DNA from: Cladosporium halotolerans
Taxonomy: Eukaryota
Direction of reading: 5' to 3'
NCBI RefSeq assembly: GCF_011745625.1
Contig: NW_027191481.1
Coordinates: 62,001-126,000, forward strand
Length of the DNA: 64,000 bases
The notes under the pieces were generated by a model. That model was not told where the DNA came from. It ran no database searches and saw only the letters and a list, made by a program, of their open reading frames with translations. The translations under genes were made by a program, and so were the position numbers. How positions within the stretch are numbered: the first letter of the stretch is position 1; each line of letters begins with the position of its first letter. Shown here piece after piece: positions 2,267 to 53,505 of the stretch.

Positions 2267-3550
2267 ATGGCTGCTATCGGTGCGCGGTCAGCCTTCGGCA
2301 CAAGGGCTATCCCAAAAATTGCCTCATCATGCTCTAGAATATACACCACTCGGCCACTGGCCGCAAAGACAACACAATGGCAACGCCGAAGCTTCCAAAC
2401 CGCACCGCCTGCTGGCAGGATACCTGACTTCGCCTTCGCTTTTGAGTAGGATTACCCTGCGATTCTGAAGCCCGAATCGGTATTGACCAGACTTCCCAGC
2501 ATCGACGGTGTCCTCCTCCGCTCGTCAACACCTATCCCCTCCGCCCACGAGGCCCTGTCATACCTCCAGCAACAGCGCATACCATTCATCCTGCTCACCA
2601 ATGGCGGCGGAAAATCCGAGGAAGAGCGCGTCGCAGACGTAGCCGAGAAGCTCAAGGTCCCCCTGGACACCAGCATGTTCGTGCAATCCCACACTCCCTT
2701 CGCGGAGATGACGGACCTGCACGACAAAACGATCCTCGTCGCGGGCGGCGACGGCGCCAAATGCGCCTCCGTCGCGCGCGGCTACGGCTTCAAGAACGTC
2801 GTCACGCCCGGCGACATCCTCGTCGCGCACCCAGAGATCTGGCCCTTCGCCAACGTCTTCCGCGAGCACTACGCGCCGCTCGCGAGCCCGCTCCCCAAAC
2901 CCATCGACCCCTCCAACCCCGCCAACAGCCTCCAGATCGACGCCATGTTCGTCTACAACGACCCGCGCGACTGGGGCCTCGACGCGACCATCCTCATGGA
3001 CCTCCTCCTGTCCTCGCGCGGCGTGCTCGGCACGCTCTCCCCCAAGAACAACGACCGCTCCCTGCCCAACAACGGCTACCTGCAGGACGCCCAGCCGCAC
3101 CTGTACTACAGCAACCCGGACCTGTGGTGGGCGGCGTCGTACCACCTGCCGCGGCTGGGCCAGGGCGGCTTCCGCGAGGCCTTCAACGGCGTCTGGGCGG
3201 CCGCGACGCAGGGCGCCAGCCTCGACATGACCGTCATGGGCAAGCCGTACCAGCCCACGTACGAGTTCGCCGAGCGCCTGCTGCGCAAGTATCGGAAGAC
3301 GCTGTTTGGCTCGACGGGGCTGAATGACCCCCTGCGCAGGGTGTATATGGTCGGCGACAACCCGGAGAGCGATATCCGTGGTGCGAATGGGTATAAGAGT
3401 CCGTATGGGAGCGAGTGGCGCAGCTGTCTTGTGGAGACGGGCGTGTATGCTGGTGGGGAGGCGCCGGAGGGTGCGAGGCCGGATGTTGTGAGTAGGGATG
3501 TGGGAGAGGCGGTCAAGTGGGCCTTGAAGGATGCCGGATGGCAAGGTTGA
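2267..3550 (+). CDS. HAD-superfamily subfamily IIA hydrolase, CECR5/HDHD5 (yeast YKR070W)-like, probable mitochondrial presequence (intron 2446-2499)
   Basis: Splicing rebuilds motif I 'FAFAFDIDGVL'. Also 'LLTNGGG', 'NDPRDW', 'GKP', 'YMVGDNPESDIRGAN'. Arg/Ser-rich N-terminus; alternative in-frame ATG at 2213. Confidence 0.88.
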
Positions 3551-4639
3551 TCGAGGGGAGCTTGGATACAGTGGGCGAGTCGCGCTTCGTCGTTCAAGAG
3601 GTTGGATGATATATTAACATATCGACGGATCATGAACGGTACACATTGATGCATATAGAGTGAAATAGATTATGTCAGCGTACCTTTCATCTCACAATGT
3701 CTGCAATCGGAACACGATCACAGCCCAGGTCAAGGTCTGAGTTGTGACAAGCTGCAGATAGATTCTCGTTGAAAGAGGTCATTTATTTTAAAAACAAGTG
3801 TGAACACCGATCTGCTACCCTCTCATATGCCCATTTCAGTGCCTAGATTCCACCGCTCGTCCGAAAAGGTGAGGTGAATGAAATCCTCCAAGAAAGTCAC
3901 TACCTCAAGATGTCGCTAGTCTCCGATGGAAGAATGTAGTAGTTGATACTATCTTTTTGCTCGTCGGCTATTGAGACTAAATCTTTACCCGGAGAGATAT
4001 ATATCTCTGAAGCCTACGACTCCCGTTGGTGGCCTGTGGAAACATCGTGATAACCCCAACCCTAACCCTACCAACACTCTTTGGCAATCGGCTCTGAATC
4101 ATCGGGGCAAGAGAAGTGGAAAAAGGAGCGATTCTTACGGTCGCTTTGCGGATGAGCTATCAAGTGAAAGACATGAGCTTACTAGCTCGTGTAAGCAAGA
4201 AGATATCGTTTTGTGCCTGGCGTAGATGCGAGTTAGATAGAACGTCATCAGCCAATCAGGTGTGCGAATTTCGATTGCCTCCAACTGCAGTAGATGTCAC
4301 GATAATCGCTCCGATAGACTTCCTTATGAGCTTCACAAACACATGTAAGGAACATGTCGCGGAGACCTTCAAATCGGGAAATGGAACATCGATAAGCATC
4401 ACATGATGAAGTGTTGTGAGAGGCGCTCCATCACATGGAAGGCATGAACGGAACCGCTTGACGCCACTTGGACCTGCCTCGCCGTCGATTGTTATTGACA
4501 CGACGTCGTCACTGCCACCTTCTTGAGAGGCACTGCATATGTTCACGACTGTGAAACTCCAACTCGAAGATCCACGACACTACCCATCAAAATTTACATC
4601 AATCGCTACAACATATTGAACAAATAGCCGATCGCTACC

Positions 4640-7623
4640 ATGACGGACCCAGACATTCCCCAGTCAGACGACACCCAAACCAAGTCGAAAGCACTCCAGG
4701 ACTTCCCTGCCGAGCTTCTTGTCAAGATCCTGGAACTTCTCCCCACCCAAGAGCTCTACGCCGTGAACCTCACGTCAAAACGATTCAATAAGATTGCTCA
4801 GCCCGCAATATGGCGCGACGTGGAACTTGTCGACTGCCGTGCTCATACCTCACCTCACACTGGCCACCGCACTGTGACCTCGGGACCCATTACCGCCACG
4901 CACACGGGTAACAGAATCCCCGCAGGTGCGACCGTGGGCGCCGAAACAGACGAGCACGACGATACGCCCTTGATTCGGAAGCTGATCATCCTGGCCACGT
5001 GAGTGCCTCTTTTGACGTCGCGCCCACTCTCATGGCAGAAAAGCTGATCCTAAGTTTCCTCAGAAATCCCAATATCGCGACCTCTGTCCAAACGCTTACC
5101 CATCGGTGTCACCTTGCTACGCCGGCCCTCTTCACCGAACTGGAGCGCACGCCTTTTACCGCGCAGACGCTTTCGATTGATCCACGTACAATACGTCTCG
5201 TGCAAATGGCAGTCAAGGGTAAGCATTTCGTGACTTTGAAGAATGCTCGGACATCAGACTAACATTTTTGCAGTACGTTAAGCTCCCCTTGAACGCCTGT
5301 TCGGGGCTGGAGAACTTCCACCCAAAATTGAGAACATCGGTAGTACTGGCTCCCATGGAATGCAAGCTAATACATCATAGCAAATGACCAACGTGCAAAC
5401 CGTTCAAATCGTGTTCGGACATCCGAGACTCTCCGAAGCGCTTCTGCGGTGCTTTTTCGACCAAGATCGACCGACCAAGATTAAGCATCTTTGGCTAGAG
5501 AACGTGAGGATCCTCGAAGGGACCGAGATCGAGATTCAAGACCACAAGTATGGACTGCCGAAGCATCTGAATTTCCACGGGCTCAAAAGCTTGCGGTTCA
5601 GAAGACTGCCGATGGAGACTGTACAGCAGGCGCATGGCCAAACCGGCCTGAACCCAGCTTACTTCAACCATGCACGCGGCAATCGATCAACTGAGCTGCA
5701 GAATGGCTTTGGAGGTCAGTACCTCACCAATACTGTCGCCGTCGGTGCCGAGCTCGTATCAGGACAAGAGCAGGTGGAGCAGGTCATGGAAGCGACAGAG
5801 TCACCAGACGAGCCGGTGCCTTTCCAGAACTTAATGGGCCCGGCGCACAAGTTCGACGACGCCATTTACGCAGCCGTATCCGGCCAAGTGGCACTTCCTG
5901 CTGAGGTTCTTGCTGCCGCCGAGCCGTCTCACCACAGACGCAGCATTCTGGCCTACCAAGCGCCTTGGTACTTGCCTGTACAGGAACTTCCTCCCGAAGA
6001 AGCTCGTATGTTCAGGCAACTCTTCCGCGCAAACGGGCCCACGGCTGGTAAGACCGCTTTGGCTTTGCTCGGCAGCGCGAAAGACACATTGACTTCTCTT
6101 ACTTTGGACTGGGCAATGACAGCACCGGACGAGTCTTCAATGAATCGAGAGGACTACGAAGGGTGGCTGCGCTGGTATTTGCAGCTCTTCGACCTGCGGT
6201 TTCCATCGCTTCAGGTATTCCAATACCGTAATGCGATTGTGGATAAGAGTATGCTGCCGTCTGGCCTGTTTCTCTTGGATCACTCGAACCTGTCCTCTGC
6301 TGATTGTAAGCTTCCCCTATACATAGAATGTGATCGATAAATTGGCAGCTTACAATTTTGTAGATCCCGAGAAGAGACCTCTTACAGGTCAGCCTCGATC
6401 GACGGTCTTTGACATGGGCCTAAAGCCACTCGAGTTCATAGAGGCACACCCCAAGCTTAAGTGTCTCGCTTGGCCAATGGATCAGTTCTTCGCTCCGCAC
6501 CCAAGACACGACATTGAAGGACGTGTGCAAATGGTCATCAGCAGACTGGCAACAATGCTCGTCGATCTCCGAGTCGATGCGTGTTATTGCGGCATGGGAG
6601 AACCACACAGCGACAACTATTCACCAGGGTGGGAGACTGAAGGTAAGTCATCAAACAACGCCCCCAACATCCGAATCGTCTAAATGTCATCTAGACACCC
6701 TTTCCCGCCGCCGCTTCATCGCCGAGTTCGCCGCCGAGATGCGCACCGTCACCAGCATCAAAATCGAAGGCGGCATCCCACTCGACGAGCGCCGCGAGAC
6801 CATCCGCGCTCTGCGCCACTGCAAGCTCGAGAAAATCGTGTTCATCGGCACCTGCTCCACCATCGGCAACACTTGGGGCGCAGGCGGCACAGACGGCACC
6901 CTCACCGACGACGAGCGGGACTTCCTCGAAGAAGAAGACGAAACCTTCATCAAAGAAATCATCAAACGCGCCCCCGTCGCCCCCAACCTCGACCTCCCCT
7001 TCCGCCCCGACTACGGCTGGAGAGGCCGCCCGCCCATGACGTACACCATCGCCGCCTACCACGGCGCTTCGATCCGCGAGCTGAAGTTCTGCGGCTACAA
7101 AGGCGCCCCAGACCTCTTCAACCCCTCACACCTCGCCGAATCCCTGCTCGACCCCCTGCTGCACTTCCCGCGCCTCGAGGCCCTCACGCTCAGCCTCAAG
7201 CTCGACACCTCGCACGGCAACGCGACGCACGACGACTCCGTCATCGCCTCCTGGCTCGCGCCGCGCAACCCGACCACCACCGCGCTCGTCGCCGCGCCCG
7301 GCTCCGCGCCCCCGGACTCCTGGGCGCGCCAGCTCGAGTACTTCGAGCCGGAGTACCTCGCGTGGACGGCCGTGTGGTTCGCGCAGGACTTTCTGAGCGC
7401 GGAGGCGAGGCGGCAGCCGGGGGGCGTGAGGTTCCGCGCGAGCTTCTGCATGGGAGATTGGGGTGGGATTTTCGACTTGGACGTCTGGGTTGGGTGCGGG
7501 GGGAGCGGGAAGGCGGTTTTGTTGGGGTTTGAGGGGCCGAGGGAGGAGAGCGAGGAGGGGAGGAGGAGGGAGAAGTTGGTGGGGAGGAGGTGGTTTGGGA
7601 GTGGGTTGAGGCTGGGGGGTTGA
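4640..7623 (+). CDS. F-box domain protein (exons 4640-4998, 5064-5217, 5381-6305, 6349-6642, 6695-7623)
   Basis: N-terminal F-box 'LQDFPAELLVKILELLPTQELYAVNLTSKRFNKIAQPAIWRDVEL'. Five ORF segments join in frame with canonical introns, provided 5218-5380 is removed as a stwintron. Confidence 0.82.
5218..5380 (+). other. [D1,2] stwintron: internal intron 5219-5273 nested in the donor of an external intron (G5218 + 5274-5380)
   Basis: G|GTAAGC...GACTAAC.TTTTTGCAG|TACGT...GCTAAT.ACATCATAG. Excising the inner intron creates the donor GTACGT; the final junction AAG|CAA ATG is in frame. Confidence 0.8.
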
Positions 7624-8471
7624 GAGGTGAGTGGAGGAGGGAGGTGGGACGGTCGCTGGTATAGTAGATTAGGAGACATACGTTGGACAATGCAGGTACA
7701 CACTCCTTACATGCCGGCCCAGAAACTATAATTCGATACCCGAGCGGAGCCAGACAGAGCAAGTAATGAGTCTCAAGACAGTCCCACGTCTTGTATCGAT
7801 TGATCCCGTCCCATGGAACAGCCAAACGTTTCTCCATCGCGCACCCGAAAGTCTATAGGCTTTGGAAGACTATCACGTGTTTCTGCGTAGCGAATGTTCT
7901 TGAATCTCCTCGGCCGAGATTTAGTTTCGGTAACTATAAGAAAAGGTAATAGCACATAACCCCTTTTCCCTTTCATAGAATTCAGAGACCCAGAGGCGAT
8001 TTACCATCTTCCAGAACCTCAAGCTCCGGACAAGCAATGGCTGCAATTGCCGTCCCAAACAGCCTGGAAGACACAGAAACGGCTCTCATCGATCCAGAAA
8101 AGACAATACACCATACCTATACCTATACACTCTCTCTGCACACCCCACAGGCCGCGGACGAGACCCACCAACAACGAAAGCAACACAACGCTCCAAGAAA
8201 TGACGCAACGACAGTCGAACAAACCCTATCTCGACACAAAATGATAACAGCAATACCGACAGCCGTTCGCCGCACCCATGCAGAAAAAAAAATACAAAAT
8301 TAACCCTTCGCAGCCCGAACCCCTCCCAACGCCATGCTAATGATAACCAACGCACCAACAAGAACCACCACCACACCCCCCCTCCTCCGTCTCCCCCCTC
8401 AAGCCGAAAAGCGAACGCAAACGCGAAAGAACAACACAACAGACCGAGAAACGAACAACTTACCCAGACAC

Positions 8472-11400
8472 TCACTCCCTCCACTCCTCCACAATCCCCA
8501 CACCCGCACCCGCACCCGCATCCCTAACGCCCTTCCCCTCCTCCCCCGCCCCGGCCTCGCACTTGAACAGATTCACGTGCCCGTCGTTCACCGCGCCGCA
8601 AGCCAGCATCATGCGGTGCGGGTGGAAGGCGGTGGCCGTGATGGGCGCCGAGCGCGGCGTCGCGCTCATGCGCAGGTAGCTCATGTAGGGCTCGAAACTC
8701 GACAGGTGCTTGAGGGCCGTGTTGTAGACGCGGATGGTGTGGTCTGCGCCGCCGGTGGCGAAGACGGGCGCGTGCTCGTGGACGGAGAGGGCGCGGAGGT
8801 TCCGCGGCAGCCGTGGGTTGCCCGGCAAAGACGCGACGGCGCCGCGCATGCGGATGTCCCAGAGGCGCACGCCGCCGTTGGATTCGGCGGTGATGAGCTC
8901 GCGGGCGCCGCCGCGCTGCAGGTGGGCGCCGACGATCCAGGAGCGGTGGTCGTGCGCGCGGTTGACCCAGTCCATGATCATGGAGTCGCGGGGGCCAAGG
9001 CGCTGGTCGTAGGCGCGGACGGAGCCGTTGCCGAAGCCGGCGACGAAGACGTTGCCCTCGACTTGGTCGGAGGTGAGGGAGGTGATGCAAGAGCCGGAGC
9101 GCGCGGGGATGTCGGAGATGCAGAGCTCGTGGCCGGCCTGCCAGACGCGGATGACGCGGTCGTCGCCGGCGACGAGGATGCGGCCCTGCCCTTGCTGCCA
9201 GTCGAAGACGAGGCCGGCGTTTTGGGAGTCCGAGGTGACGAGGTCGGAGAGCGCGCGGAAGCTAGACGCGAGCTCGATCTTGGCGACGTCTTCGTAGTGC
9301 TTGTAGATTTTGATCACGCCATCGCTGGAGCCGGTCATGAGCATTGCTTGGTCGTCTTCGTTGATGAAGCGGAGCTCGGTTACGCGGCTGCGAGGTGGGT
9401 TGCCGTTGCTGAAGCGGCAGAGTTGACGAGCTTCCTTCCAGTCCCACACGGCGATGCTGTCGCGGTCATCGCTGGTGACGAGATGGTGCTCGAACTGGTG
9501 GAAGAGCATCTTCATGGGAGCAGCGCCAATGCCAAAGTAGCCACAAGGCACGTCCCACCTCTGGATACCAGCCGCCTCTTTCATCGGCTGCGTGCCGGAA
9601 ATGATCTTGTCGTTGCGATTGCGTCTCCACAGGCGCTCGTTGTAGTCCAGCGAGCCCGGCTCATCCTCCTCCGAAGGCCTCATCTGCGGCTCGCGGAAGT
9701 ACGACGCAGACCACGTGAAGAAGTTGGACTTCAGTGGAATCTCCGGCGGCTTCGTCGCGTCTCTGACAACGAGATTAGGCGAAGGCGGGATCTTGGCCAT
9801 GGGCTGATGCGGCGGCCCGTTCACATTGTCGAGAGCGTCGGGAGGCAGGAGCGCGGCATCCGCTGGAGCCAAAGGTCGAGATCGGTAAGAAGCGTAGTCG
9901 TGCGGGTGGTCGTGAGACGATACGGAGCCTCGGTGAGCCGTGGGAGAGGGGGGCGTGGACGAGTCGTTCGATTGCTTCGACGCGGAGCCCCAACCAACGA
10001 AGCTCTTCATTGCAGCGGCTACACTAGCCGTGCGAGACAGGCCGAAATAGCCGTCCTTGTTGGTCGACGTGGGAGTCGCGGGACTGGGCGGAGTCTGAGG
10101 ACGGCCCAAGTCACGAGAACGCTGGCGTGCGAGAACGTCCATGCCGGAGAGGGTGAGCTGATCGCCCTTCAAGCCCTCAAGTAAGAGCTCGTCGAGGATC
10201 TTGTTGGCATAGCCGCCGAGCGGCGACTCGAGCAGAGCATTGACGACATAGTCAACGACGATGCTAGCGTTTTGCGCAACCTCAGGGTGCGGGTCAGCCG
10301 ACATGCTGAGCGTCTGGCGCCAGACAGCACGGTAAATCGTATTCTTCGACACATCAGCCTGCTTCGCAGCATTGTTCGTCGCGACAGATGCATCAGAAGC
10401 CGCCGTCGACGTCGTGCGGTGATGGACCGACCGCGAGCCGTTCACGCCATTAGCACCCTCGTGAGCACTCGCGTTGTCCGGCTGAGCGGGCCCATCCTCC
10501 TTGCCACCCCCGACCTTCGCCTCGCGCTCCTCGTTCAGCTGCTCCCACGCCGCCACGATGAAGCGCGACTCGTACCTCTTGATGAAAGTCGAGTAGAACA
10601 CGACCAGCTCCTTGCGGACCATGATCGACCCGTCCATGCCCATCGCCACGACCACGCTCGCAAGCGTCTCCTCCTCGAGCATGGTCGCAGCGTCGATGTC
10701 GCCCGTGGCGACGAAACTCGTCAACGCGTCCAGGCACGCCGCGCGCACCTCGGGCACCGGATCGTGGCTCCTGTCGCGGACTCTCGCGTGCGCCTGCTGC
10801 GCCATGCCGGCGGCCTTCGCCGGCGGGTAGTCCCGCCACAGGTGGCTCAGACACAGGCACGCGAACTGCCTGAGGAGGGGGTTCTCCATGTCCAAGATGT
10901 GGCCGAGGCAGCTCTCGATGATCTCCGGGTTGCTTTCAAGGACGGCGGCCTTGCCGGGGCGGAAGTCCTTGCAGAACATGGCGATGACGAAGGCGCACAT
11001 GGCGCGGTGCTCGGCGACGTTGCCGATCGGCATGCCGATGGCGTTGTTGAGGATGGCGGTGAAGTAGGTGTAGCCGGAGTCCTTGAGCAGGTCGCCCTGG
11101 CAGCTCTGGTCGACCGCGAGGATTCTGGCCCAGATGAAAACCATGGGCGGTTTGAGCTCGATGGCTTGCGATTGCAGGAGCTTGAGGACGTAGGGGAAGA
11201 TGCCGATACTGAGCGCTAAGTTGACGGCCCAGGGGCCAAGATCCAAAAACTTTGAGAGCAATATCAATGCCCGTAAGCGGTGGACCTGCGAAAGAAGGAC
11301 TTGCAGGACGATGGGTAGTTGCTCAGGGGGTTTGGCGTAGCCTGCCGCACCGGCATTGGCAGGCGCTGAAGAAAGGTAAACCTCAAACGCGCTGAGCTGG

Positions 11401-13067
11401 TCAGCAAAGAAGTCTGAATGCACGTAATCGAGTTCTTGAGGCGGTTGAGGCATTGTGCCATTCGGCGCCGACTCCATAGCTGCATCGTTCGCCTTCTGTT
11501 GTTCGATCAGTTTGGGCAGTTGGGCCAGAATCATCTCGACAGCAAGATCCCAACTCTGCCACAGCGGGTGGTTGTGTGTATCGGGTATCTCTGGATGCGA
11601 TTGTGGATGGCAGTGATATATGCGCATGACTCTTTGGGCAAGCAAGAAGTTTCTGAAGAGCGCGGCGACCATCAAGTCTTGTCTGAACAACTTCTTGAAC
11701 AAAGGTTTATCGAGACAGTTCCAGGCGATCGTATCGGTGATGGCCGTGAAGATCCAGTTCAATTCTCCAAGGGGCGTTCTACGCTCGCTGACCTTTCCTG
11801 GGATGTCTCGTGCCTGCGCTAGTGTGATCCCAGAGGTCGATGGCAGGGGATTCTGTAGCATGAAGAAGCGGACTGCCATGGTGATCGGCGTGGTCAGACA
11901 ACTCGTGAATATATCTGCGGGCAGATTCGGGTTCGTAGGGAGGTTCTCGTTCTCACGGCAAGCGGCTAGGTGGATGCTGTCTTCCCATCGGATTGTAGGC
12001 TGTTGCTGTGCGCGGTTGGGATCTCTCTTCAGCGCTTCCTGCTGATTGACGATGTGTTTCTGTGCGCCCTCCAAGAATCCGTTTATGATTCCCCCGGCCG
12101 CACTGCAATCCCACACCCAAAGACCCGGCGCGCCTACCCAGTCTTGGAGATCGTACAGGCTGATGGGGATGTACTGAGTGTAGCTCCTATTAAAACACCA
12201 CACTTCTCCACTCTGGGTAGGTTTGGGGACGCCGTGGCCGTTGTAGTGGAATAGTAAGCGCTCCGCGTGCGCCGTGCGACGCAATGATGTTGTGTATTTC
12301 TTAAGCTCTTCGATCGTCGGGTCTAGAACGACTTTATATCGTGTTCTCAGAGAGAGACTCTCGTATTGCGACTGCAAGTTCTTGCCGATCTGCGCGTTGC
12401 TGTTGTTCGTCGAGCTCTGATTAGTGCTGTCGGGCGGGATGGGCTCGACCCAGCATTGCAGTCTCGCGCAGGGGTTGGTCTTGATCACGTCGGGTGGGTC
12501 GACGCCGACGTTCAGACACACTGCGAGGATCGCGGAGACGGTCTTCAAGCGATCCTTCATCCTCCATTCCGACACGATGTTCTTGGGGTCGAATCCAGGA
12601 GGCGGGTTACCTGCTGTTTCATGTCGCTTGTCTTCAAAATACATGAAGAACGTCTGACTGAGCAGATTCGCCTGCTCGGGGCTCTCGAGCTGCGCCTCCC
12701 AGCCGTGTCGCATGCGCAGCTTGCCGTCCTTGTCCTTTCCGTCGTCCGTCGTCCTGCTGTCCCTCGTAGCAAGGGACCTCCGCGACATTTCACTCGTCGC
12801 GCGCGACATGTTAGGCCTCCGGTGTGCGCGACCGTTGGCGCGTGGCAGATGCAGACCGTCGTCATCGTCGGAACCGCTATCCGGGTTGTGCAGAGAGCTG
12901 CCGTTGGAGGCGAGAGGCCGGCGTGGCGAGGAGGTCTGCGACGAATATGTGCCTTCTTCCAGGCCGGAGGGGAGCAGGTTCTCGAGTACGGGCTGCGGGT
13001 GCTTGGATCGGTGGCCGTCCTTGGTCTCGTAGTCCGGCAGCATGCCGGTGGTGGCTCCTCGCGTCAT
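8472..13067 (-). CDS. KOG1: Raptor / TORC1 subunit Kog1 (Mip1), 1531 aa, apparently intronless
   Basis: Raptor N-terminal conserved domain ('WRMKDRLKTVSAILAVCLNVGVDPPD', 'LFHYNGHGVPKPT', 'PPEQLPIVLQVLLSQVHRLRAL'), central HEAT repeats, C-terminal WD40 repeats ('AFHPHRMMLAC'). Confidence 0.97.
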   Translation of the reverse strand: MTRGATTGMLPDYETKDGHRSKHPQPVLENLLPSGLEEGTYSSQTSSPRRPLASNGSSLHNPDSGSDDDDGLHLPRANGRAHRRPNMSRATSEMSRRSLATRDSRTTDDGKDKDGKLRMRHGWEAQLESPEQANLLSQTFFMYFEDKRHETAGNPPPGFDPKNIVSEWRMKDRLKTVSAILAVCLNVGVDPPDVIKTNPCARLQCWVEPIPPDSTNQSSTNNSNAQIGKNLQSQYESLSLRTRYKVVLDPTIEELKKYTTSLRRTAHAERLLFHYNGHGVPKPTQSGEVWCFNRSYTQYIPISLYDLQDWVGAPGLWVWDCSAAGGIINGFLEGAQKHIVNQQEALKRDPNRAQQQPTIRWEDSIHLAACRENENLPTNPNLPADIFTSCLTTPITMAVRFFMLQNPLPSTSGITLAQARDIPGKVSERRTPLGELNWIFTAITDTIAWNCLDKPLFKKLFRQDLMVAALFRNFLLAQRVMRIYHCHPQSHPEIPDTHNHPLWQSWDLAVEMILAQLPKLIEQQKANDAAMESAPNGTMPQPPQELDYVHSDFFADQLSAFEVYLSSAPANAGAAGYAKPPEQLPIVLQVLLSQVHRLRALILLSKFLDLGPWAVNLALSIGIFPYVLKLLQSQAIELKPPMVFIWARILAVDQSCQGDLLKDSGYTYFTAILNNAIGMPIGNVAEHRAMCAFVIAMFCKDFRPGKAAVLESNPEIIESCLGHILDMENPLLRQFACLCLSHLWRDYPPAKAAGMAQQAHARVRDRSHDPVPEVRAACLDALTSFVATGDIDAATMLEEETLASVVVAMGMDGSIMVRKELVVFYSTFIKRYESRFIVAAWEQLNEEREAKVGGGKEDGPAQPDNASAHEGANGVNGSRSVHHRTTSTAASDASVATNNAAKQADVSKNTIYRAVWRQTLSMSADPHPEVAQNASIVVDYVVNALLESPLGGYANKILDELLLEGLKGDQLTLSGMDVLARQRSRDLGRPQTPPSPATPTSTNKDGYFGLSRTASVAAAMKSFVGWGSASKQSNDSSTPPSPTAHRGSVSSHDHPHDYASYRSRPLAPADAALLPPDALDNVNGPPHQPMAKIPPSPNLVVRDATKPPEIPLKSNFFTWSASYFREPQMRPSEEDEPGSLDYNERLWRRNRNDKIISGTQPMKEAAGIQRWDVPCGYFGIGAAPMKMLFHQFEHHLVTSDDRDSIAVWDWKEARQLCRFSNGNPPRSRVTELRFINEDDQAMLMTGSSDGVIKIYKHYEDVAKIELASSFRALSDLVTSDSQNAGLVFDWQQGQGRILVAGDDRVIRVWQAGHELCISDIPARSGSCITSLTSDQVEGNVFVAGFGNGSVRAYDQRLGPRDSMIMDWVNRAHDHRSWIVGAHLQRGGARELITAESNGGVRLWDIRMRGAVASLPGNPRLPRNLRALSVHEHAPVFATGGADHTIRVYNTALKHLSSFEPYMSYLRMSATPRSAPITATAFHPHRMMLACGAVNDGHVNLFKCEAGAGEEGKGVRDAGAGAGVGIVEEWRE

Positions 13068-14938
13068 GTCGGAGGGCGGATCAATTCGAGGTGGTCAGCG
13101 CGGCGCACGAGAGCGTGTCCCGTGTCCGCTCTTGCGGGTGCATCGAATGCGGGCTCGAGAGAAGGAGGTGGGGAGTGCGTGTGCGTGTGCGGGTGAGTGG
13201 GTGGTCTGCGGCGGCGCGCAGGAAGTGAAGGGCTCAGCGGGTTGGCTGTCTGCAAGCGTGCGACAGAGTGAGCAGCGTCCCAAGCCGCGGTGGTGATGCA
13301 GCACTCAGACATGCGGGCGCGGTGGGAGTAAGCGCAAGCCTAAGGCAGAGAGCCCAGGCACGCGGGTCGGCCCCAGGAAAGGCGGGAGGCGTGAGCGAAG
13401 GCTGGGGCCGCGAAGTCTTGGGACGACGCCGGGGGTGCGAGGTGAAGGGTGGGTGAATGGGCACGAAAATCACGGTTGGTGTTACCTGCATTGCTACGAA
13501 TGCTCGAATGGGACAGGTCTCTTGCGCAAGCGAGATAGCCGCAGCCAAAACACCAAGGCGCACGCCGCACAATGGGCAGGCCGCCTTCGCCTTCGCCTGC
13601 GCTCACACGCAACGCCGTCACCATCTCACGCCCTCCGCCAGTTCAAGCACCTGTCGCGAAAGGAGCGGCACGTCGCTTGGCCTGCCGATTGGCTGCATGT
13701 GCCATGGTCGGTTTGGCAGCGCGGAAGCCGGTCGTGCGCCAACTACCTTCGGCCTGCCTCGGTGGTGCGATGGGCCAGGCACCGCTGGCCAGCTGTAGGA
13801 GGGAGTTGTGAAAGCCCAGGTGAATTTCCCGTCGCTCGATGCGCCGTCCTGGCAGCAGCCCATCGCGTGCCCACAGCATGTACTGCACTGCACTGTACGT
13901 GCCCACAGCCGCAAGGTGCAGCCGCCGGCTGGTGATGGTGATAGGGCGGCGGGCGGAGACGCGATGATCGGCACGGCTCCGGCGCCAGGAAGGCTTGCAG
14001 ATTCCCCCTACATGGGCCGTGGCTAAACTCGTCTCAGGCTTCGGGCTGACGGCCAGGCAATAATCACCACCACCACATCCACCACCCTCCGCCTCGCCTG
14101 CCCTCGTTGCAGGTTGATGGGCGCGTAATTACATAGACCGCTCCGACACTGCAGTCGTCATCACCATCACCACCACCACGACGCTCTTCGGCTCGCCGTG
14201 CGTGCGTCCGTCGACTCGGGCGCTGCTCCGGGGCAACAGACCGCAACTCATGTCGCCCGTGGCCGCCGTGTCGCCCTCCACCGGCGCGCTGACGCGGAGG
14301 CTGCGGGCGTGCTGTGCTGTTGCTCTCCTAGCGGCGCCGGCAGCCCTTCTCGAATCACGCCCGCCGTGGCCCGCTGCAGACGAGCGGCGCCAGAGTGCCC
14401 ACGCTTGCCCTACCGGCCACATAGCCAAGGCCTGCTCCTCGCAAGCCCGCCCTTGTCTCTCCCCCCCGTAGTTTGGCAGTTGCTCGAAACGCCAAACATT
14501 ATTTTTTGCCCCGTCCGCCTGCCCTGCCCTGCCGTGTCTGCCTCACCGCGCCTCCAATCCGACCTGTATCCCACGTCCCGCGTGCCTCGCCCGTCCTCGC
14601 GCCTGTTTGCTGCACGTTAGAGTGCTAGAGTGCTAGAGTGCTCGGGACGGGATAGCGCCGCTTGATCTCCCAGCTTGCCGGGAGTCGGGGGGTTCTTGGG
14701 AAAGAAGCACCTCATTCCTCAGCCTCCTGCTGCTGCCGCTGCCACCAGGCCACCGCTCTGCCCTACGCCCTCTCCATCCTCCTCTGCCACCGCGACAGAG
14801 CGCGAGCACCCGCCTCTGCCGCACTGCGCCGCCTGAGCACTCCCTCCCACAGCCTATGCCCGCGCCCTCGCCCTCGCTGCGTCCCTCTGCTTCGGCCGCG
14901 CCCGACGGCGCCTCGCACCCCATCGAGCCCGCGCAATA

Positions 14939-32549: not shown

Positions 32550-33446
32550 ACGAGTTTGAGCAACGCATATCAGATTGTGACGGGTTACGAGAGGCCGTAC
32601 TGGGCATTTGCTGGCTCATGCCCTAGGCCAGACGGACTGTAACTAAGTAACGGCTTCTAGAAGCAGCCAACTTCGCTAGTGATCATGTGTAGCATGCAGA
32701 TCAATTGATAACCTTATTACATCTCCGTACGAGTGAGCGTCCTCTTGAGTACCAGTGCAAATGCCATTAATCAGACGAATTCCCTGTCTCTTTTCGTACG
32801 ATACACACAAGCACGTGTCGCTGCAGCGTGGTTGAGCTGCTGAGGCTGCCATCAACGTCGGCATGTGATTCAGCGCGGCCCGACCGCGGGCGTCGGGTTG
32901 ATGCATGACCTTGTAGCGAAGTCAACCAACCGAGCCAACCTAACCCAACCCTGCCTGCACGCAACGCGCGACCAAATCACGTTCGGTGCATACCTCGACG
33001 TGACTTTTTGTCGCCGGTCAGGCTGCCGCTACGCAACTCCTCTTGACCACTGCCACTTGCCTCGCGTGCTCTTTGTCTCGTGCATCCGCCGTCGCCGAGT
33101 CCTTTCGGCGAACACAGCTAACCAGTCCCCGAGCCTCCAGGTCAGGTCAGGCACTCCATCGCCCAGTTATCCACCGCCAGCACACCGGAGCCCCGGGCGC
33201 TCTGCTGCCTAGCTGCCTAGGACGCTACCTAGATCGCCGGCACCATGTCCGCGAGGTAGGAGAAAAGATCACATCATCGAACCGCGGACAATCACTTCAA
33301 CGCAATTGTCACAAATCCCCAGAAGCGAGCCAGCAAGCAAGCGGCCCTGCGCCGTTCCCGAACCGCTACACGGATTCCCCCCATCACACACTCACTTGAT
33401 TACTTGCTACCCATACTCTGCCGTTGCCACGCGGCCCTAGCCAGTC

Positions 33447-36400
33447 ATGGCTTCTTCCCAGTCACCCGGCGCCGCCTCGCCGGCCCTGCGCGCCCAGATG
33501 CAAGAGCGCAGGCGGGTGAACTTGCAGCAGTACAGCGTATCGCCTGGGAAAATGAGATCAAGCGTTCCGCTACCGGCGCGCTTTGAAGACGGCACGGACG
33601 AGGAGGATGAGGAAGAGCAAGGCGAAGCGGCCGACAAGGCTGTGTTCCAGAAGAGCATCTTGGGCGTCTTCTCGCAGGCGGGCACCAAGGCGAAGCTCGA
33701 GGAGGCTACGGAGAGTGACTCTGATGTCGAGCAGGAGGACTACAAGCAGCAGCAGGGCGACGATGCTGCGCAGGATGTTGGAGCAGTGCCCTCGAGGAAA
33801 TTCTCGGACAACAAGATCCTCCGCCCGCTGCTGAAGCCTCGCCGCAAGCGCGCTGAGTCCGAGTCGCAGGACGCCATGTCGCAGTCACAATTTCTCCCTC
33901 CGCGGGAGACGGCACAGGATGTACCAGAGCGGCCTGCGAGCGCAGGAGGAGAACGCGCGCGCGATGATACGCCGCTGATCGAGCGCAAGCTACAGGCACA
34001 GGCCGATGCGGAAATGGAGACTTCGACGGGATCGATTCGCCGGAAGAGCAAAGACGAGTCGCAGCCGGTAGAGAAGGGAGCGAGGCTCGTGAAAGCCGTC
34101 GCGGATATCTTTGACCTCCCGGAGCCCGAGGAGGTTCTGGCCGTCTGGTCGTGCTGGTACTTGGAGAAAGCGCTCTTGCAGGGCCACCTGTACGTGACGT
34201 CGAAGCACCTCTGCTACTACGCCTACCTTCGCAGGAGAGGCGTTGTGCTGAAGTCTGGATATATGGCGAAGCAGGGTAAGCGTGATCCTCGCTATTCTAG
34301 ATTCTGGTTCCAGTTGAAGGGTGACGTTCTGTCTTACTACAAGGACGCCTCGCATCTCTACTTTCCTCATGGAAGCATCGATCTTCGCTTTGCTATCACT
34401 GCAACTCTCGCACCAGAGAAGGGCAAAACCAACAAGGATACGCCTTACTTCACTGTCACGACCGAAACTCGTACATACTACTTCAAGGCGGACAGTTCGA
34501 CGAACGCGAAGGAGTGGGTCAAGCAATTGCAAAGGGTCATCTTCCGCAGCCATAACGACGGAGACAGCGTCAAGATCTCTCTCCCGATCAGGAACATCAT
34601 CAATGTCGAGGCAGCCCCTTTCGTCGACGGGGCCGATACCGTCAAGGTCTCCACTATCGACGGCGCGGACGCTTTTGCCATCGAGGAATACTTTTTCACG
34701 TTCCATGACCACGGCGAGGACGCTCTGCGTTTGCTGAGTGTGCTGACGGAAGACAATGAAGTGAAGCAGGGTGTTGAGGATGGCGTTCAAGATGTCGCCG
34801 AGCCTGCAAGCAGACAATCTGGCTCCGGTAAGAGGAGTACGCCGGCCAATCAGTCGCGGTCCCCTCGCTTGTCAACTTCACCGGCGCCTTGTGTGGAGGA
34901 GAACGTGCGGAAGACGCTCTCACCGCTGTCTGTGCCTGCATCGAGAAGTCCAAGGAGCAGTGGGGAGTTTGGACGCGCGAGTTTGGAGACGTCTCGCCCT
35001 AGCATTGACCGACCTATTTTGGACGATGATCGCGGCCGGGACGCTCGCCCTCGAGCGGATACAGGTGATTTCTCTCAGGTTCCGACCTCCCCTTCGACAC
35101 ATCAGTCAACGGATTCGTTCGCTACTACGATCGAGCATCCGATGAGTTCGCCCTCGGTCGGGCCCGCAGATAGCGACATGTCCGCCAGCCAAATGCTGAC
35201 GGGAGACAACGCTTTCCGTGCGCCGACTCTCAGAATGCCGGCACCCAGACGTACTGAGTCTGAGTCTTCCGCTGAGCGTATCAGAGAAGAGCTGGATGAA
35301 GCATCTCGATCGAACAGTGTTGGCAGCGGCCGCATCCGCGTACAACCGCCGACCCGTACACACACCGATCAAACTCTCGGCGATGGCGAAAGCCCTCACA
35401 GCCGTAAGAGCAACGACACTGTAGCCCGTCGCGAGAAATCAGACGGCTCAAAACCACACGAATCGACCAGCACCATCGCCCCTCGCCCTTCGCGCCCCAT
35501 AGCGACGCCCCTGCTCTCGGCGACCAAAATGGCCAGCTACGTGCGCGACCAAAGCAAACGCGTCGTCAACACCCTCAGCAGCAGCCCAGGCATCTACTAC
35601 GAGAAGGTCTCTGGCGCTCTCGCCGGCGGACGGCGCTCCTACGTCACCTCCGAAGGCCTCCCGCCCGAGGACGCCCTGCAAGAGGAAGAGATCGAGGAGA
35701 AGACGCGCAGCTTCCGCAAGCACTTCTCCCTGCCCGAGTCCGAGCAGCTGGTGTCTTCGCACGGCTGCGCGCTGTACCGCGTCCTCCCGCTGCTGGGAAA
35801 GATATACCTAGGCACGAGCTACTTCTGCTATCGTAGTCTTATCGCAGGCATCAGCTCCAAGATGGTGATTCCGCTGAGGGATATTCTGAACGTGGGCAAG
35901 ATGAACGGTTACCGGCTCGGAGCGTACGCTATGGTCTTGGTGATCAAGGGGCACGAGGAGCTCTTTTTCGAATTCTCGAAGGCGGACGACCGCGACTTCT
36001 GCGTTGTCGATGTTCTGAGAGCGCTGCAAGCGGTCGGAGATGTTGACGATGCGGCTTTTCTGACCGAGCAGGAGGCGATGGATGCGGAGGTTGCTGCTGC
36101 TGAGAACGAGCTCTTGCAGCAGGCGCGCAATGAGGGGGATCTTGCCTCACGCGCCGAGCTGAAGGATGTTTCTGATGACGGCCCGCCGATCCTGTTCGAC
36201 GACGGCAATGCGTCCATGCTGGATTTCAAGCCGAAGGAGCCGATGCGTGTCACTTGTCTGACGATAGGGTCGCGCGGCGACGTCCAGCCGTACATCGCTC
36301 TCTGCAAGGGCCTCATTGCTGATGGACATCATCCTAAGATTGCCACGCACGCTGAGTTCGAGCCGTGGATCCGCAAGCATGGGATCGACTTTGCGCCTGT

Positions 36401-37811
36401 TGGAGGAAACCCTGCGGAGCTCATGGCTTTGTGCGTCGAGTACGGCATGTTCACTCCCAAGTTTATCTCGGAGACGAATTCGAAGTTCCGCGGCTGGCTC
36501 GACGATCTTCTTGTCAGCGCATGGGAGGCGTGCCAAGGCAGTGAGGTGCTCATTGAGAGCCCGTCTGCCATGGCCGGCATTCATATCGCTGAGGCGCTTG
36601 GTATCCCGTACTTCCGCGCATTTACAATGCCATGGACCAAGACAAGAGCATACCCGCACGCTTTCGCGCCGCTTGCATCGAAGTTCGGAGGAAACTACAA
36701 CATCGGCACCTACACGGTCTTCAACAACGTCTTCTGGCAGTTGACGGCCCGGCAGATTAACAGCTGGCGGCGCAGGACCCTCGGCATCCGCAACACGAGC
36801 ATCGGCGCAATGCGGCAGAACGAAGTGCCCTTCCTATACAACTTCTCGCCCAACGTCGTCGCCCCGCCCCTCGACTTCAGCGCCTGGGTCCACATCACGG
36901 GCTACTGGTTCCTCGACGAAGCGCAAGACTGGACCCCGCCCGCCGACCTCCTCACCTTCATCGCCAAGGCCCGCGCCGACAACATGAAGCTCGTGTACAT
37001 CGGCTTCGGCTCCGTCGTCGTCTCCGACTCCAAGGCCATGACCCAGCACATCGTCGACGCCGTCCTCAAAGCCGACGTCCGCTGCATCCTCTCCAAAGGC
37101 TGGTCCGACCGCCTCGACCCCACCACCCCGCAAACCGCCCCCGAAATCCCCCTCCCGCCCTCCATCTTCCAGATCTCCTCCGCCCCTCACGACTGGCTCT
37201 TCGCCCAGCTCGACGCCGCCGTCCACCACGGCGGCGCCGGCACCACCGGCGCCTCCCTCCGCGCCGGCATCCCAACCATCATCCGCCCTTTCTTCGGCGA
37301 CCAGTTCTTCTTCGCCTCCCGCGTCGAGGACATCGGCGTCGGCCTCCGCCTGCGCCACCTGACGCCCAACGCCCTCGGCAAGGCGCTCTGGATCGCGACG
37401 CACGACGCGCGCGTCCGCGACAAGGCCGCGCTGCTGGGCGCGCGCATCCGCGCCGAGAACGGTGTTCAAACTGCGCTCAGCGCTCTCTACCGCGATCTGG
37501 AGTACGCGCGCCGCCTTGTTAAGCGCAAGGTGGGCAAGCGGCTGCGGGCGCCGGGAGAGAAGGGCGTTGAGTGGGAGGATAATGAGGAGGGGGAGGGGGC
37601 TGGGTTCGGGTTTGATGGCGAGGATGGTGGGGAGGAGGAGGAGGAGTGGACTTTTGTCGACGAGGAGGAGGAGAGGAACGGTGGCGGGGACGGGGCGACG
37701 GGCGTGGGGATCGGGGATCCGATGGGGTGGGAGGCTAGGGCGGCGCAGAGGAGGTTTTTGGGCGCTTTTGGAGGAAGGGTTGCGAGGGTGGGGAGTCGTG
37801 GGGAGATGTGA
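33447..37811 (+). CDS. ATG26: Sterol 3-beta-glucosyltransferase (GRAM-PH-GRAM-UDPGT), 1454 aa, apparently intronless
   Basis: PH domain ('KSGYMAKQGK..RFWFQLKGDVLSYY'), GRAM domains, 'CLTIGSRGDVQPYIAL', 'HHGGAGTTGASLRAGIPTIIRPFFGDQFF'. Confidence 0.95.
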   Translation: MASSQSPGAASPALRAQMQERRRVNLQQYSVSPGKMRSSVPLPARFEDGTDEEDEEEQGEAADKAVFQKSILGVFSQAGTKAKLEEATESDSDVEQEDYKQQQGDDAAQDVGAVPSRKFSDNKILRPLLKPRRKRAESESQDAMSQSQFLPPRETAQDVPERPASAGGERARDDTPLIERKLQAQADAEMETSTGSIRRKSKDESQPVEKGARLVKAVADIFDLPEPEEVLAVWSCWYLEKALLQGHLYVTSKHLCYYAYLRRRGVVLKSGYMAKQGKRDPRYSRFWFQLKGDVLSYYKDASHLYFPHGSIDLRFAITATLAPEKGKTNKDTPYFTVTTETRTYYFKADSSTNAKEWVKQLQRVIFRSHNDGDSVKISLPIRNIINVEAAPFVDGADTVKVSTIDGADAFAIEEYFFTFHDHGEDALRLLSVLTEDNEVKQGVEDGVQDVAEPASRQSGSGKRSTPANQSRSPRLSTSPAPCVEENVRKTLSPLSVPASRSPRSSGEFGRASLETSRPSIDRPILDDDRGRDARPRADTGDFSQVPTSPSTHQSTDSFATTIEHPMSSPSVGPADSDMSASQMLTGDNAFRAPTLRMPAPRRTESESSAERIREELDEASRSNSVGSGRIRVQPPTRTHTDQTLGDGESPHSRKSNDTVARREKSDGSKPHESTSTIAPRPSRPIATPLLSATKMASYVRDQSKRVVNTLSSSPGIYYEKVSGALAGGRRSYVTSEGLPPEDALQEEEIEEKTRSFRKHFSLPESEQLVSSHGCALYRVLPLLGKIYLGTSYFCYRSLIAGISSKMVIPLRDILNVGKMNGYRLGAYAMVLVIKGHEELFFEFSKADDRDFCVVDVLRALQAVGDVDDAAFLTEQEAMDAEVAAAENELLQQARNEGDLASRAELKDVSDDGPPILFDDGNASMLDFKPKEPMRVTCLTIGSRGDVQPYIALCKGLIADGHHPKIATHAEFEPWIRKHGIDFAPVGGNPAELMALCVEYGMFTPKFISETNSKFRGWLDDLLVSAWEACQGSEVLIESPSAMAGIHIAEALGIPYFRAFTMPWTKTRAYPHAFAPLASKFGGNYNIGTYTVFNNVFWQLTARQINSWRRRTLGIRNTSIGAMRQNEVPFLYNFSPNVVAPPLDFSAWVHITGYWFLDEAQDWTPPADLLTFIAKARADNMKLVYIGFGSVVVSDSKAMTQHIVDAVLKADVRCILSKGWSDRLDPTTPQTAPEIPLPPSIFQISSAPHDWLFAQLDAAVHHGGAGTTGASLRAGIPTIIRPFFGDQFFFASRVEDIGVGLRLRHLTPNALGKALWIATHDARVRDKAALLGARIRAENGVQTALSALYRDLEYARRLVKRKVGKRLRAPGEKGVEWEDNEEGEGAGFGFDGEDGGEEEEEWTFVDEEEERNGGGDGATGVGIGDPMGWEARAAQRRFLGAFGGRVARVGSRGEM

Positions 37812-49715: not shown

Positions 49716-50463
49716 ATGGTTTGCGGAGTTGATGTTGCTGTTTAGACACGTCTGTCAACACAAGTCTCTATTGCACCGTGCGTCCAACCGTTCCAGGCTC
49801 AAGATGGACATCTTGCGAAGTACATCGGCGTGTGGTGCGGAATTCCAGGTTCAACACAGCACGTCCAGTACGACGCGTGGAAGCTTTCCCCGGGCTTTGT
49901 TTTGACGTCACGTGGCCACCCCGTCGCCGCTTGCGCTGGCTCGCGCAGCTGCCCCACGCGGCGCTGCCAAGGGCCTGCGGCAGCATATAAAGGCTGAGGC
50001 ATGCGCCTCGCGACTGGCCCCGGTGCCAAACAACGAAACGCCTGCGCGCATCCCATTCCGCCCGCCAAACACACACCACACACCACCACCCCACCGCGCA
50101 CACCCGACAATACCTCCTCCAGCCAACAATTGCCACCATCGCCCTTGATCGCGTGCATCCCGCCGCCTGCGCGCGTGCTAGCTCTCCGCATCCAGCAAAG
50201 CGCCTCTGGAAGCTCGGAAAGCAAGCTCCCGTCCTACCACTCGTAGCATCTGGCAGTGCTCACTCCGCACTTGTGAATGAACGTGCCTCTTGCCTCGTGA
50301 CGTGTAGATGGCTGCCGCCTACATGCGGCTGTGAACCACACCACGCGCCTGCCTTCCCTGCATTCCATCGCGCCGACCAAATGCCCCGGCCAAAGCATGT
50401 GACCGACCAATAAACTGCGCCAACCCCAACCCAAACCCACACACTCTTACCTCCACCACACCA

Positions 50464-53058: not shown

Positions 53059-53505
53059 TTTTCTTTTTGGAGATCCACACGCATTTTGGCGCATCGGATC
53101 TTTTCAGCGAGCGAAGCGAGGTGGGAGGTTCTAGGTTATTTGTTTTTCTTGACGGCGTTCAATAGGCGGCGTCCAACAGACTTGCGGCCGGATCTTGAGA
53201 TCCCGACTCTGACAGGCGTTGCTTACAGTTGTATCAGACAGCATTCTCCTCTACATTTTCCGCATACTGCTCTTCTCTCACTTTGATTCAACGAACGTTC
53301 ATTCAAGATGCCTAGGCAGGAATCCTGCAGATCATGTCCCGCATCCGTGGCGGCTGTGGAGGACCTCGGCTCGTGTGAGCAGCTCTTCTCGACCCACATT
53401 TCTTTACTGACCTACAGTCCAGTACATTCAGGTATCGATGGTTTCTTTTGGGGGTAGGATTAAAAAAAACAATAGATTTACGCTGCCGAAACTTAATTCG
53501 ACACA

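Follow-up and report, generated by a model that had tools for sequence, protein, structure and literature searches.

How are 163 nucleotides (nt) removed from the coding sequence of a fungal gene when no single canonical splice accounts for their loss? The question is raised by positions 5218–5380 of a 64,000-nt stretch of Cladosporium halotolerans DNA (contig NW_027191481.1; the whole stretch is referred to below as the window, and all positions are those of the window). These nucleotides lie between exons 2 and 3 of an F-box gene at 4640..7623 on the plus strand. An earlier examination of the bare letters (the sequence-only reading) had proposed that they form a [D1,2] stwintron, in which one intron, the internal one, splits the donor of another, the external one, after that donor's first nucleotide, so that two consecutive splicing reactions are required. 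The analysis presented here confirms the observation on 5218–5380 and supports that interpretation. Exact removal of the 163 nt is practically certain, and their removal by two consecutive canonical reactions, as a [D1,2] stwintron in an expressed F-box gene encoding 881 amino acids, is highly probable.

Four of 23 matching sequencing runs (X2, X3, X10 and X16) were examined, all as assembled contigs; the other 19 include four recorded as RNA, with shares of 0.05–0.06. X2 and X3, two samples from one study, provide two contigs each, with exons 100% identical to the window. These contigs skip all four intervening sequences of the gene, passing from 4998 to 5064, from 5215 to 5379, from 6305 to 6364 and from 6640 to 6693, and X2 and X3 are taken as RNA because the four introns are removed exactly. 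The second skip is exactly 163 nt long and, with an alignment ambiguity of 2 nt, equals the junction 5217/5381. The mature messenger RNA (mRNA) in X2 and X3 reads AAG/CAA, with 5218–5380 gone, including the first G, and the flanking exons in frame; this is the junction GTCAAG/CAAATG that had been predicted from the sequence. No micro-exon or other splice site within 5274–5380, which the sequence-only reading had named as a possible objection, is used in the RNA-like contigs, and models with a micro-exon in this region are ruled out since the contigs skip the entire stretch. The structure of the gene is as follows.

4640..4998, plus strand: exon 1, carrying the F-box-like domain; RNA-like contigs join 4998 to 5064.
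4999..5063, plus strand: intron 1, 65 nt, canonical (GTGAGT...CAG); a GT..AG skip in X2, X3 and X16.
5064..5217, plus strand: exon 2, ending GTC AAG; homologs map to 5217 and RNA-like contigs cover it.
5218..5380, plus strand: the proposed [D1,2] stwintron as a whole, 163 nt, phase 0; a 163-nt skip in X2, X3 and X16, a match to the motif of the class and no one-step canonical ends.
5381..6305, plus strand: exon 3, beginning CAA ATG ACC; homologs map from 5381 or 5384, with RNA-like contigs.
6306..6363, plus strand: intron 3, 58 nt, canonical (GTAAGC...TAG); a GT..AG skip in X2 and X3.
6364..6642, plus strand: exon 4, from RNA-like contigs and related loci.
6643..6694, plus strand: intron 4, 52 nt, canonical (GTAAGT...TAG); a skip in X2, X3 and X16 (6640 to 6693, with the cut shifted by +2).
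6695..7623, plus strand: exon 5, including the stop codon at 7621–7623, from the list of open reading frames.

Joined in silico, the five exons give a coding sequence of 2646 nt (881 amino acids) that starts with the ATG at 4640 and contains no internal stop codon; CAA ATG ACC from 5381 is in frame with an open stretch of 308 codons. The 163-nt element is longer than the regular introns of the gene (52–65 nt). The identification of an F-box gene stands, as exon 1 (window 4640–4996) matches PF12937 (F-box-like; E 2.9e-9, 37 bits against a cut-off of 24.3) and PF00646 (E 2.6e-4, 21.2 bits against a cut-off of 20.5) in the Pfam database. The translations of the other four exons match no Pfam family at E<=0.01.

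The reading frame distinguishes between the possible forms of the transcript. Only removal of 5218–5380 restores the open 881-codon coding sequence. Full retention of the element leads to a stop at codon 186, removal of 5219–5273 alone to a stop at codon 174, and removal of 5219–5380 in one step, which keeps the G at 5218, to a frameshift and a stop at codon 206; the last two outcomes are those anticipated in the sequence-only reading. An alternative donor, GTCAAG at 5212, would be in frame and would delete Val-Lys (V-K), but is rejected in that the contigs keep 5212–5217 and the homologs conserve V-[KRQ].

No single canonical splice explains the 163-nt skip, because all three of its possible placements have non-canonical ends (AG..AT, GG..TA and GG..AG). 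Two nested canonical introns would explain it, and the element can be divided into the following parts.

5218..5218, plus strand: first nucleotide (G1) of the external intron's interrupted donor; seen in the sequence, its removal required by the frame, and missing from the mature junction of X2 and X3.
5219..5273, plus strand: internal intron, 55 nt, with GTAAGC at 5219–5224, ACTAAC at 5258–5263 and CAG at 5271–5273; from the sequence and the nested enumeration described below, presumably excised separately.
5274..5380, plus strand: remainder of the external intron, with TACGT at 5274–5278, GCTAAT at 5366–5371 and TAG at 5378–5380; from the sequence and the enumeration.

Every sequence element listed in the sequence-only reading is found where it was placed, to the base. 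G5218 together with 5274–5380 (1+107 nt) makes up a 108-nt external intron that starts GTACGT. The branch-point A of the internal intron is at 5262, with a 7-nt spacer between ACTAAC and CAG, and in the external intron a 6-nt spacer separates GCTAAT from TAG. The 5' hybrid motif of the class, a G followed by a complete canonical donor, is represented by G5218 and GTAAGC, which is one of the 24 model donors; the HAG/URWGY motif is represented by CAG (5271–5273) followed by TACGT (5274–5278); and both constituent introns, of 55 and 108 nt, are of at least 42 nt. Five of the six listed defining features of a stwintron are present, the sixth being the splicing intermediate. The two canonical introns overlap by one G in CAG/TACGT, the shared G5273, and an overlapping canonical intron at 5273–5380 (GTACGT...TAG) is also present in the primary transcript.

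Whether other nested introns could account for the same junction was assessed by listing all inner introns with GT/GC..AG ends that, once taken out, leave the rest of the element bounded by GT/GC..AG as well. Three solutions are obtained, with inner introns at 5219–5273, 5219–5282 or 5219–5343. The second would be combined with an external GC-AG intron (GCTCCC...) and the third with a 38-nt external intron (GTACTG...); both obey the bare GT/GC..AG rules and give the same mature junction. The second requires the donor GCTCCC, which has no G at +5, while the third has an inner intron with no branch element near its acceptor and an external intron shorter than 42 nt, the lower limit customary in the field (PMC9024468). 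Only the inner intron at 5219–5273 with the donor GTACGT combines two good donors with branch elements 7 and 6 nt before the acceptors. The proposal that removal of the inner intron rebuilds the GTACGT donor of a 108-nt intron is therefore the only credible nested solution, and there is next to no chance that either of the other two routes is the one used.

A different explanation is that the 163 nt are removed in one step by non-canonical splicing, from a GG 5' end (or AG, or GG..TA) to the acceptor at 5380, and that the nested signals are coincidental. The mature junction by itself cannot separate one step from two, and the signals can arise by chance. The [D1,2] search pattern `model A', taken from section 2.1 of PMC9024468, matches the 64-kilobase (kb) window once on both strands, at exactly 5218–5380, and has no match in 122,561 bases of related fungal loci. 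In 200 dinucleotide shuffles of the window the mean is 0.08 matches, and 15 of the 200 contain at least one, so the motif alone is only modestly unlikely (∼0.075 per window). The match is nevertheless more than chance because it coincides exactly with an RNA-supported 163-nt skip without canonical ends. Against one-step removal, U2 introns are described in PMC5587772 as starting with GU and occasionally with GC, a complete and well-spaced inner intron ends exactly where TACGT begins, and intermediates are reported elsewhere for the stwintron class (PMC12403724). One-step non-canonical splicing is accordingly regarded as unlikely.

Several points nevertheless weigh against removal in two steps. 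The records of X2 and X3 do not list them as RNA, their RNA nature being deduced from the exact loss of four introns. The intermediate in which exon 2 plus G is joined to TACGTT is not observed among the assembled contigs, which drop rare forms; neither this absence nor any stretch that the contigs leave uncovered counts as evidence. The model A motif arises by chance in ∼7.5% of shuffled windows, and the data are compatible with an occasional or regular use of a non-canonical GG 5' end by the spliceosome. Since the contigs drop rare forms and do not contain the intermediate, the obligatory two-step pathway of the sequence-only reading is one that we infer, from the anatomy of the element and the published behaviour of the class.

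For the proposed [D1,2] stwintron, splice sites would pair by intron definition. The U2 spliceosome would first remove the 55-nt internal intron at 5219–5273 (GTAAGC...ACTAAC...CAG), which would bring G5218 beside U5274 and form the donor GUACGU with 5274–5278. A second canonical reaction, using GCTAAT and TAG, would then remove the 108-nt external intron and join ...GTC AAG in frame to CAA ATG..., while use of the distal sites 5219 and 5380 in one step would leave the G and create a premature stop. Only the order in which the inner intron is removed first can be productive, because exon 3 starts with C: if 5273–5380 were spliced first, the donor at 5219 would be left without an acceptor, since 5381 is a C, and the product would be a dead end. 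The [A2,3] route is thus closed in the window organism, as had been argued from the sequence.

Run X16 belongs to a different study and is 95–99% alike. Its 163-nt skip is placed from 5218 to 5382, and therefore its mRNA reads ...AAGG/AAATG, compared with ...AAG/CAAATG in the window, which allows two readings of the base at 5381. The X16 sequence fits a G in place of C5381 (Gln to Glu; Q to E), in which case both orders would be productive and the element would be a [D1,2]/[A2,3] stwintron. It also fits a loss of the C, with the distal sites used in one step.

Homopolymer runs are a common place for insertion or deletion (indel) errors. If positions 5217–5219 were in truth GG and not GGG, owing to an assembly or sequencing error, a single reaction would suffice to excise the element as a normal GT-AG intron of 162 nt, and a canonical intron between the distal sites, 5219–5380, does exist in the sequence. 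Run X10 bears on this possibility, which had been raised in the sequence-only reading. It behaves as DNA from relatives, with two contigs unbroken over 4983–5299. Indels are listed at 5020, 5027 and 5252 and none at 5217–5219, so that these DNA-like contigs from an independent run argue against an indel in the GGG. In addition, the X16 mRNA retains a G after AAG, and run X1 holds 1.00 of the sampled words, although X1 may be the source of the assembly. A sequence error is hence very improbable. X10 has at least five substitutions within the element, at 5229, 5240, 5244, 5353 and 5378. These five leave the splice motifs usable, and the change at 5378 (TAG>CAG) retains an acceptor.

Homologous proteins provide a further view of the junction. 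A search with the exon 3 protein gave 18 homologs, the best with 52% identity, and those that are named are Dothideomycete F-box or hypothetical proteins. When mapped with tblastn, 13 homologs of the 18 extend across the junction, all of them lacking the extra residues that had been suggested as a possible contradiction. Seven of the 13 have adjacent residues at 5217 and 5381 (P0003, P0005, P0009, P0010, P0011, P0012 and P0015); a single unaligned residue stands for the Gln (Q) codon in P0006 and P0013; and in P0014, P0016, P0017 and P0018 the exon 2 match runs spuriously into the intron, with the residues still contiguous. The five other homologs (P0001, P0002, P0004, P0007 and P0008) begin at the Met (M) of exon 3 because their source called open reading frames without introns, as their loci show. 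The homolog sequence over the junction is ..LAV[RKQ]-[QN]-M... The mature transcript thus preserves a conserved frame. As a side observation, 5218–5253 in the frame of exon 2 reads ..TLKNART, which tblastn aligns spuriously to ..LKNV.T.. of the distant homologs P0014, P0016 and P0017; gene prediction guided by proteins could be led astray by this read-through alignment.

Among metagenome contigs, a scan identified 27 related loci, and all of these except L015 and L027 include the junction. The 25 that do have continuous one-frame DNA at this position, ..GCA GTG CGC AAC ATG ACC.. (LAV-R-N-M-T), and the position of the stwintron is therefore lineage-specific. The simplest reading is that the whole 163-nt stwintron was probably gained in this lineage. 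To judge from its distribution, the gain would fall between the relatives at 95–99% (X16 and X10), in which the element is present, and the loci at ∼50% F-box identity, from which it is absent. Exon 3 and exon 4 homologs are likewise contiguous and in one frame, for example in L001–L004 and L006–L010, and intron 3 is missing in most loci, which brings the number of lineage-specific intron positions in the gene to two. The positions of introns 1 and 4 are occupied in several related loci.

Orthology of the F-box gene is supported by its neighbour. It adjoins a Raptor (Kog1-like) gene in the window and in L002, L003, L004, L011 and L012, and the C-terminus of Raptor is 82–91% identical over the stretch covered by each locus, with 91% over ∼500 residues in L002–L004. 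The F-box protein is ∼50% identical in these loci. Two observations weaken the choice between gain and loss. It depends on relatives in which the F-box protein is only 25–52% identical, and the two genes converge in the window, where Raptor occupies the minus strand at 8472–13094, and are in tandem in the five loci, the F-box gene therefore being inverted relative to Raptor.

The origin of the element was sought in copies, symmetry and folding. Searches with blastn-short using the stwintron and its two parts against the 64-kb window and the 27 loci gave only chance-level matches, the best of 16 nt. Comparison with the other introns of the gene was not significant (the best was intron 3, with 46 of 500 shuffles as good), and the inner and outer introns show no likeness to each other. 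A comparison of the element with its own reverse complement scored 14 against a null value of 18.4, indicating no underlying DNA symmetry. Predicted RNA folding is unremarkable relative to shuffles for the whole element (z −0.40), for the inner part (z +1.23) and for 5274–5380 (z −0.40), and a local hairpin at 5283–5312 has a z of −1.95. A scan of 4000–8000 against the Rfam database at E<=1 gave no match and therefore no intronic small nucleolar RNA or similar. The minimum free energy (MFE) structure contains a near-terminal helix of 10 base pairs, including two G-U pairs, with the following arms.

5223..5232, plus strand: predicted 5' arm of the near-terminal helix, from the MFE structure.
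5354..5363, plus strand: predicted 3' arm of the helix, just upstream of the external branch element, from the MFE structure.

In 2000 shuffles this helix has P ∼0.025 in a post-hoc test. The significance of the helix is doubtful, as one of its pairs would be lost through the C>G change that a relative has at 5229; the predicted helix is only a lead.

The locus is a new [D1,2] stwintron of an established, known but rare class and introduces no new principle. Helminthosporium solani, in which a single case has been described, is a Dothideomycete, and the class would then not be new to Dothideomycetes. Further single cases come from Aspergillus nidulans and Trichoderma reesei, as reported together with that of H. 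solani in PMC5587772. In Hypoxylon sp. CO27-5, 117 [D1,2] stwintrons are reported, with more than 1,500 across Hypoxylaceae, and 81 of the [D1,2] stwintrons in Hypoxylon sp. CO27-5 are described as sequence-unrelated (PMC9024468). A set of 288 sequence-similar [D1,2] stwintrons is reported from 14 Xylariales (PMC12403724). According to these two sources the class is defined and its intermediates have been detected, and the latter also reports occasional one-step missplicing with the distal sites in Xylariales. A full-text search limited to main texts gave no match for stwintron with F-box and only a general review, mentioning each word once, for stwintron with Cladosporium.

Like the uniquely occurring [D1,2] stwintrons reported from Hypoxylaceae, the element is built from five motifs (G plus full donor, branch point, HAG plus U2–6, branch point and HAG), with an exact match to model A. 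It also lies seamlessly in continuous coding sequence with no codon gained or lost, and a search of the window and the 27 loci found nothing similar to it in sequence. In contrast to the Hypoxylaceae stwintrons, the host is a Dothideomycete (Cladosporium) and not a member of Xylariales, and no underlying DNA symmetry was found in the present element. Its position is empty in 25 of 25 relatives, whereas most of theirs are reported at family-conserved positions, and it is in phase 0, whereas phase 1 is given as the most frequent there, at ∼45% (PMC9024468).

The sister (propagating) NTIRE-10 [D1,2] stwintrons described from Xylariaceae and Hypoxylaceae (PMC12403724) share with the element a new, lineage-specific intron position. 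The 5' arm of the predicted helix starts at nt 5 of the internal donor, as does the 5'-NTIRE-10 in that account. Its 3' arm, however, lies upstream of the external branch element, while theirs is placed between branch point and acceptor (PMC12403724). In the window only 6 nt separate the external branch element from the acceptor, and the NTIRE-10 pair of that class is absent. A search of the 64-kb window and the 27 related loci found no sister copy of the element.

As in the alternatively spliced [D1,2]/[A2,3] stwintrons reported from H. solani and from the T. reesei DHA1 gene (PMC5587772), two canonical introns overlap by one G. Those stwintrons are stated to need a G directly after the 3' acceptor (PMC5587772), whereas the window has C5381. 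A lineage-specific intron gain, and a length of 163 nt against 52–65 nt for the other introns of the gene, recall the introner-like elements of Dothideomycetes (PMC3609843 and PMC4457414), which are reported to occur in hundreds of copies with a stable predicted structure. For the present element no copy was found in the window or the 27 loci, the predicted fold, with a z of −0.40, is no more stable than shuffles, and two splicing reactions would be needed. In animal recursive splicing at ratchet points a first reaction regenerates a 5' splice site that is used in the second, the regenerated donor arising within introns of great length, where the last bases of the upstream exon contribute to it. 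The proposed pathway is similar in that a donor rebuilt by the first reaction would be used in the second, and different in that the donor itself is split, G1 being separated from U2 by a short nested intron.

The locus is a well-supported case of a rare type of intron, in a position newly acquired within a lineage for which no case seems to have been published. It would provide an RNA-supported stwintron outside Xylariales, where nearly all published cases lie, and would document the gain of a whole stwintron (or a 25-fold loss) in fungi known for intron gain. With a C at the start of exon 3 only one order would be productive, making the locus a natural test of the control of splice order under intron definition, and this very base, 5381, seems to be different in the close relative represented by X16. 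In practical terms, a gene predictor restricted to GT/GC-AG introns cannot give a correct model of this F-box gene and will truncate it, shift its frame or split it.

A more speculative proposal, for which the odds are poor, is that a ready-made [D1,2] unit, which may still be mobile, was recently inserted here as the stwintron. In close relatives, differences at the initial base of exon 3 would then switch it between a [D1,2]-only stwintron, a dual [D1,2]/[A2,3] stwintron and a one-step canonical intron shifted by 1 nt. If true, stwintron propagation would not be confined to Xylariales, and the intron-shift pathway that has been proposed, with its step of 1 nt, could be seen in action at this locus.

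Other features of the region are of secondary interest. The RNA-like contigs start at 4340 and 4358. A telomere-like run of about three degenerate CCCTAA units at 4054–4072 lies ∼570 nt upstream of the ATG and ∼270 nt upstream of the contig starts. At the other end, one X2 contig departs from the gene at 7261 and continues into 30 unrelated letters, which we take to resemble small-subunit ribosomal RNA. This contig is probably an assembly chimera, so the X2 and X3 contigs do not show where the transcript has its 3' end. The neighbouring genes identified through Pfam are ordinary fungal housekeeping genes, with no [D1,2] motif match in any of them, and include the following.

2450–3550: HAD-like hydrolase.
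33441–37811: GRAM/PH sterol-type glycosyltransferase.
50335–53058: FCP1-like phosphatase with BRCT.
53497–55299: carboxyltransferase.
61759–63480: class II transfer RNA synthetase.

The carboxyltransferase is 83–85% identical to three named Cladosporium proteins and ∼70% identical to those of Mycosphaerellales.

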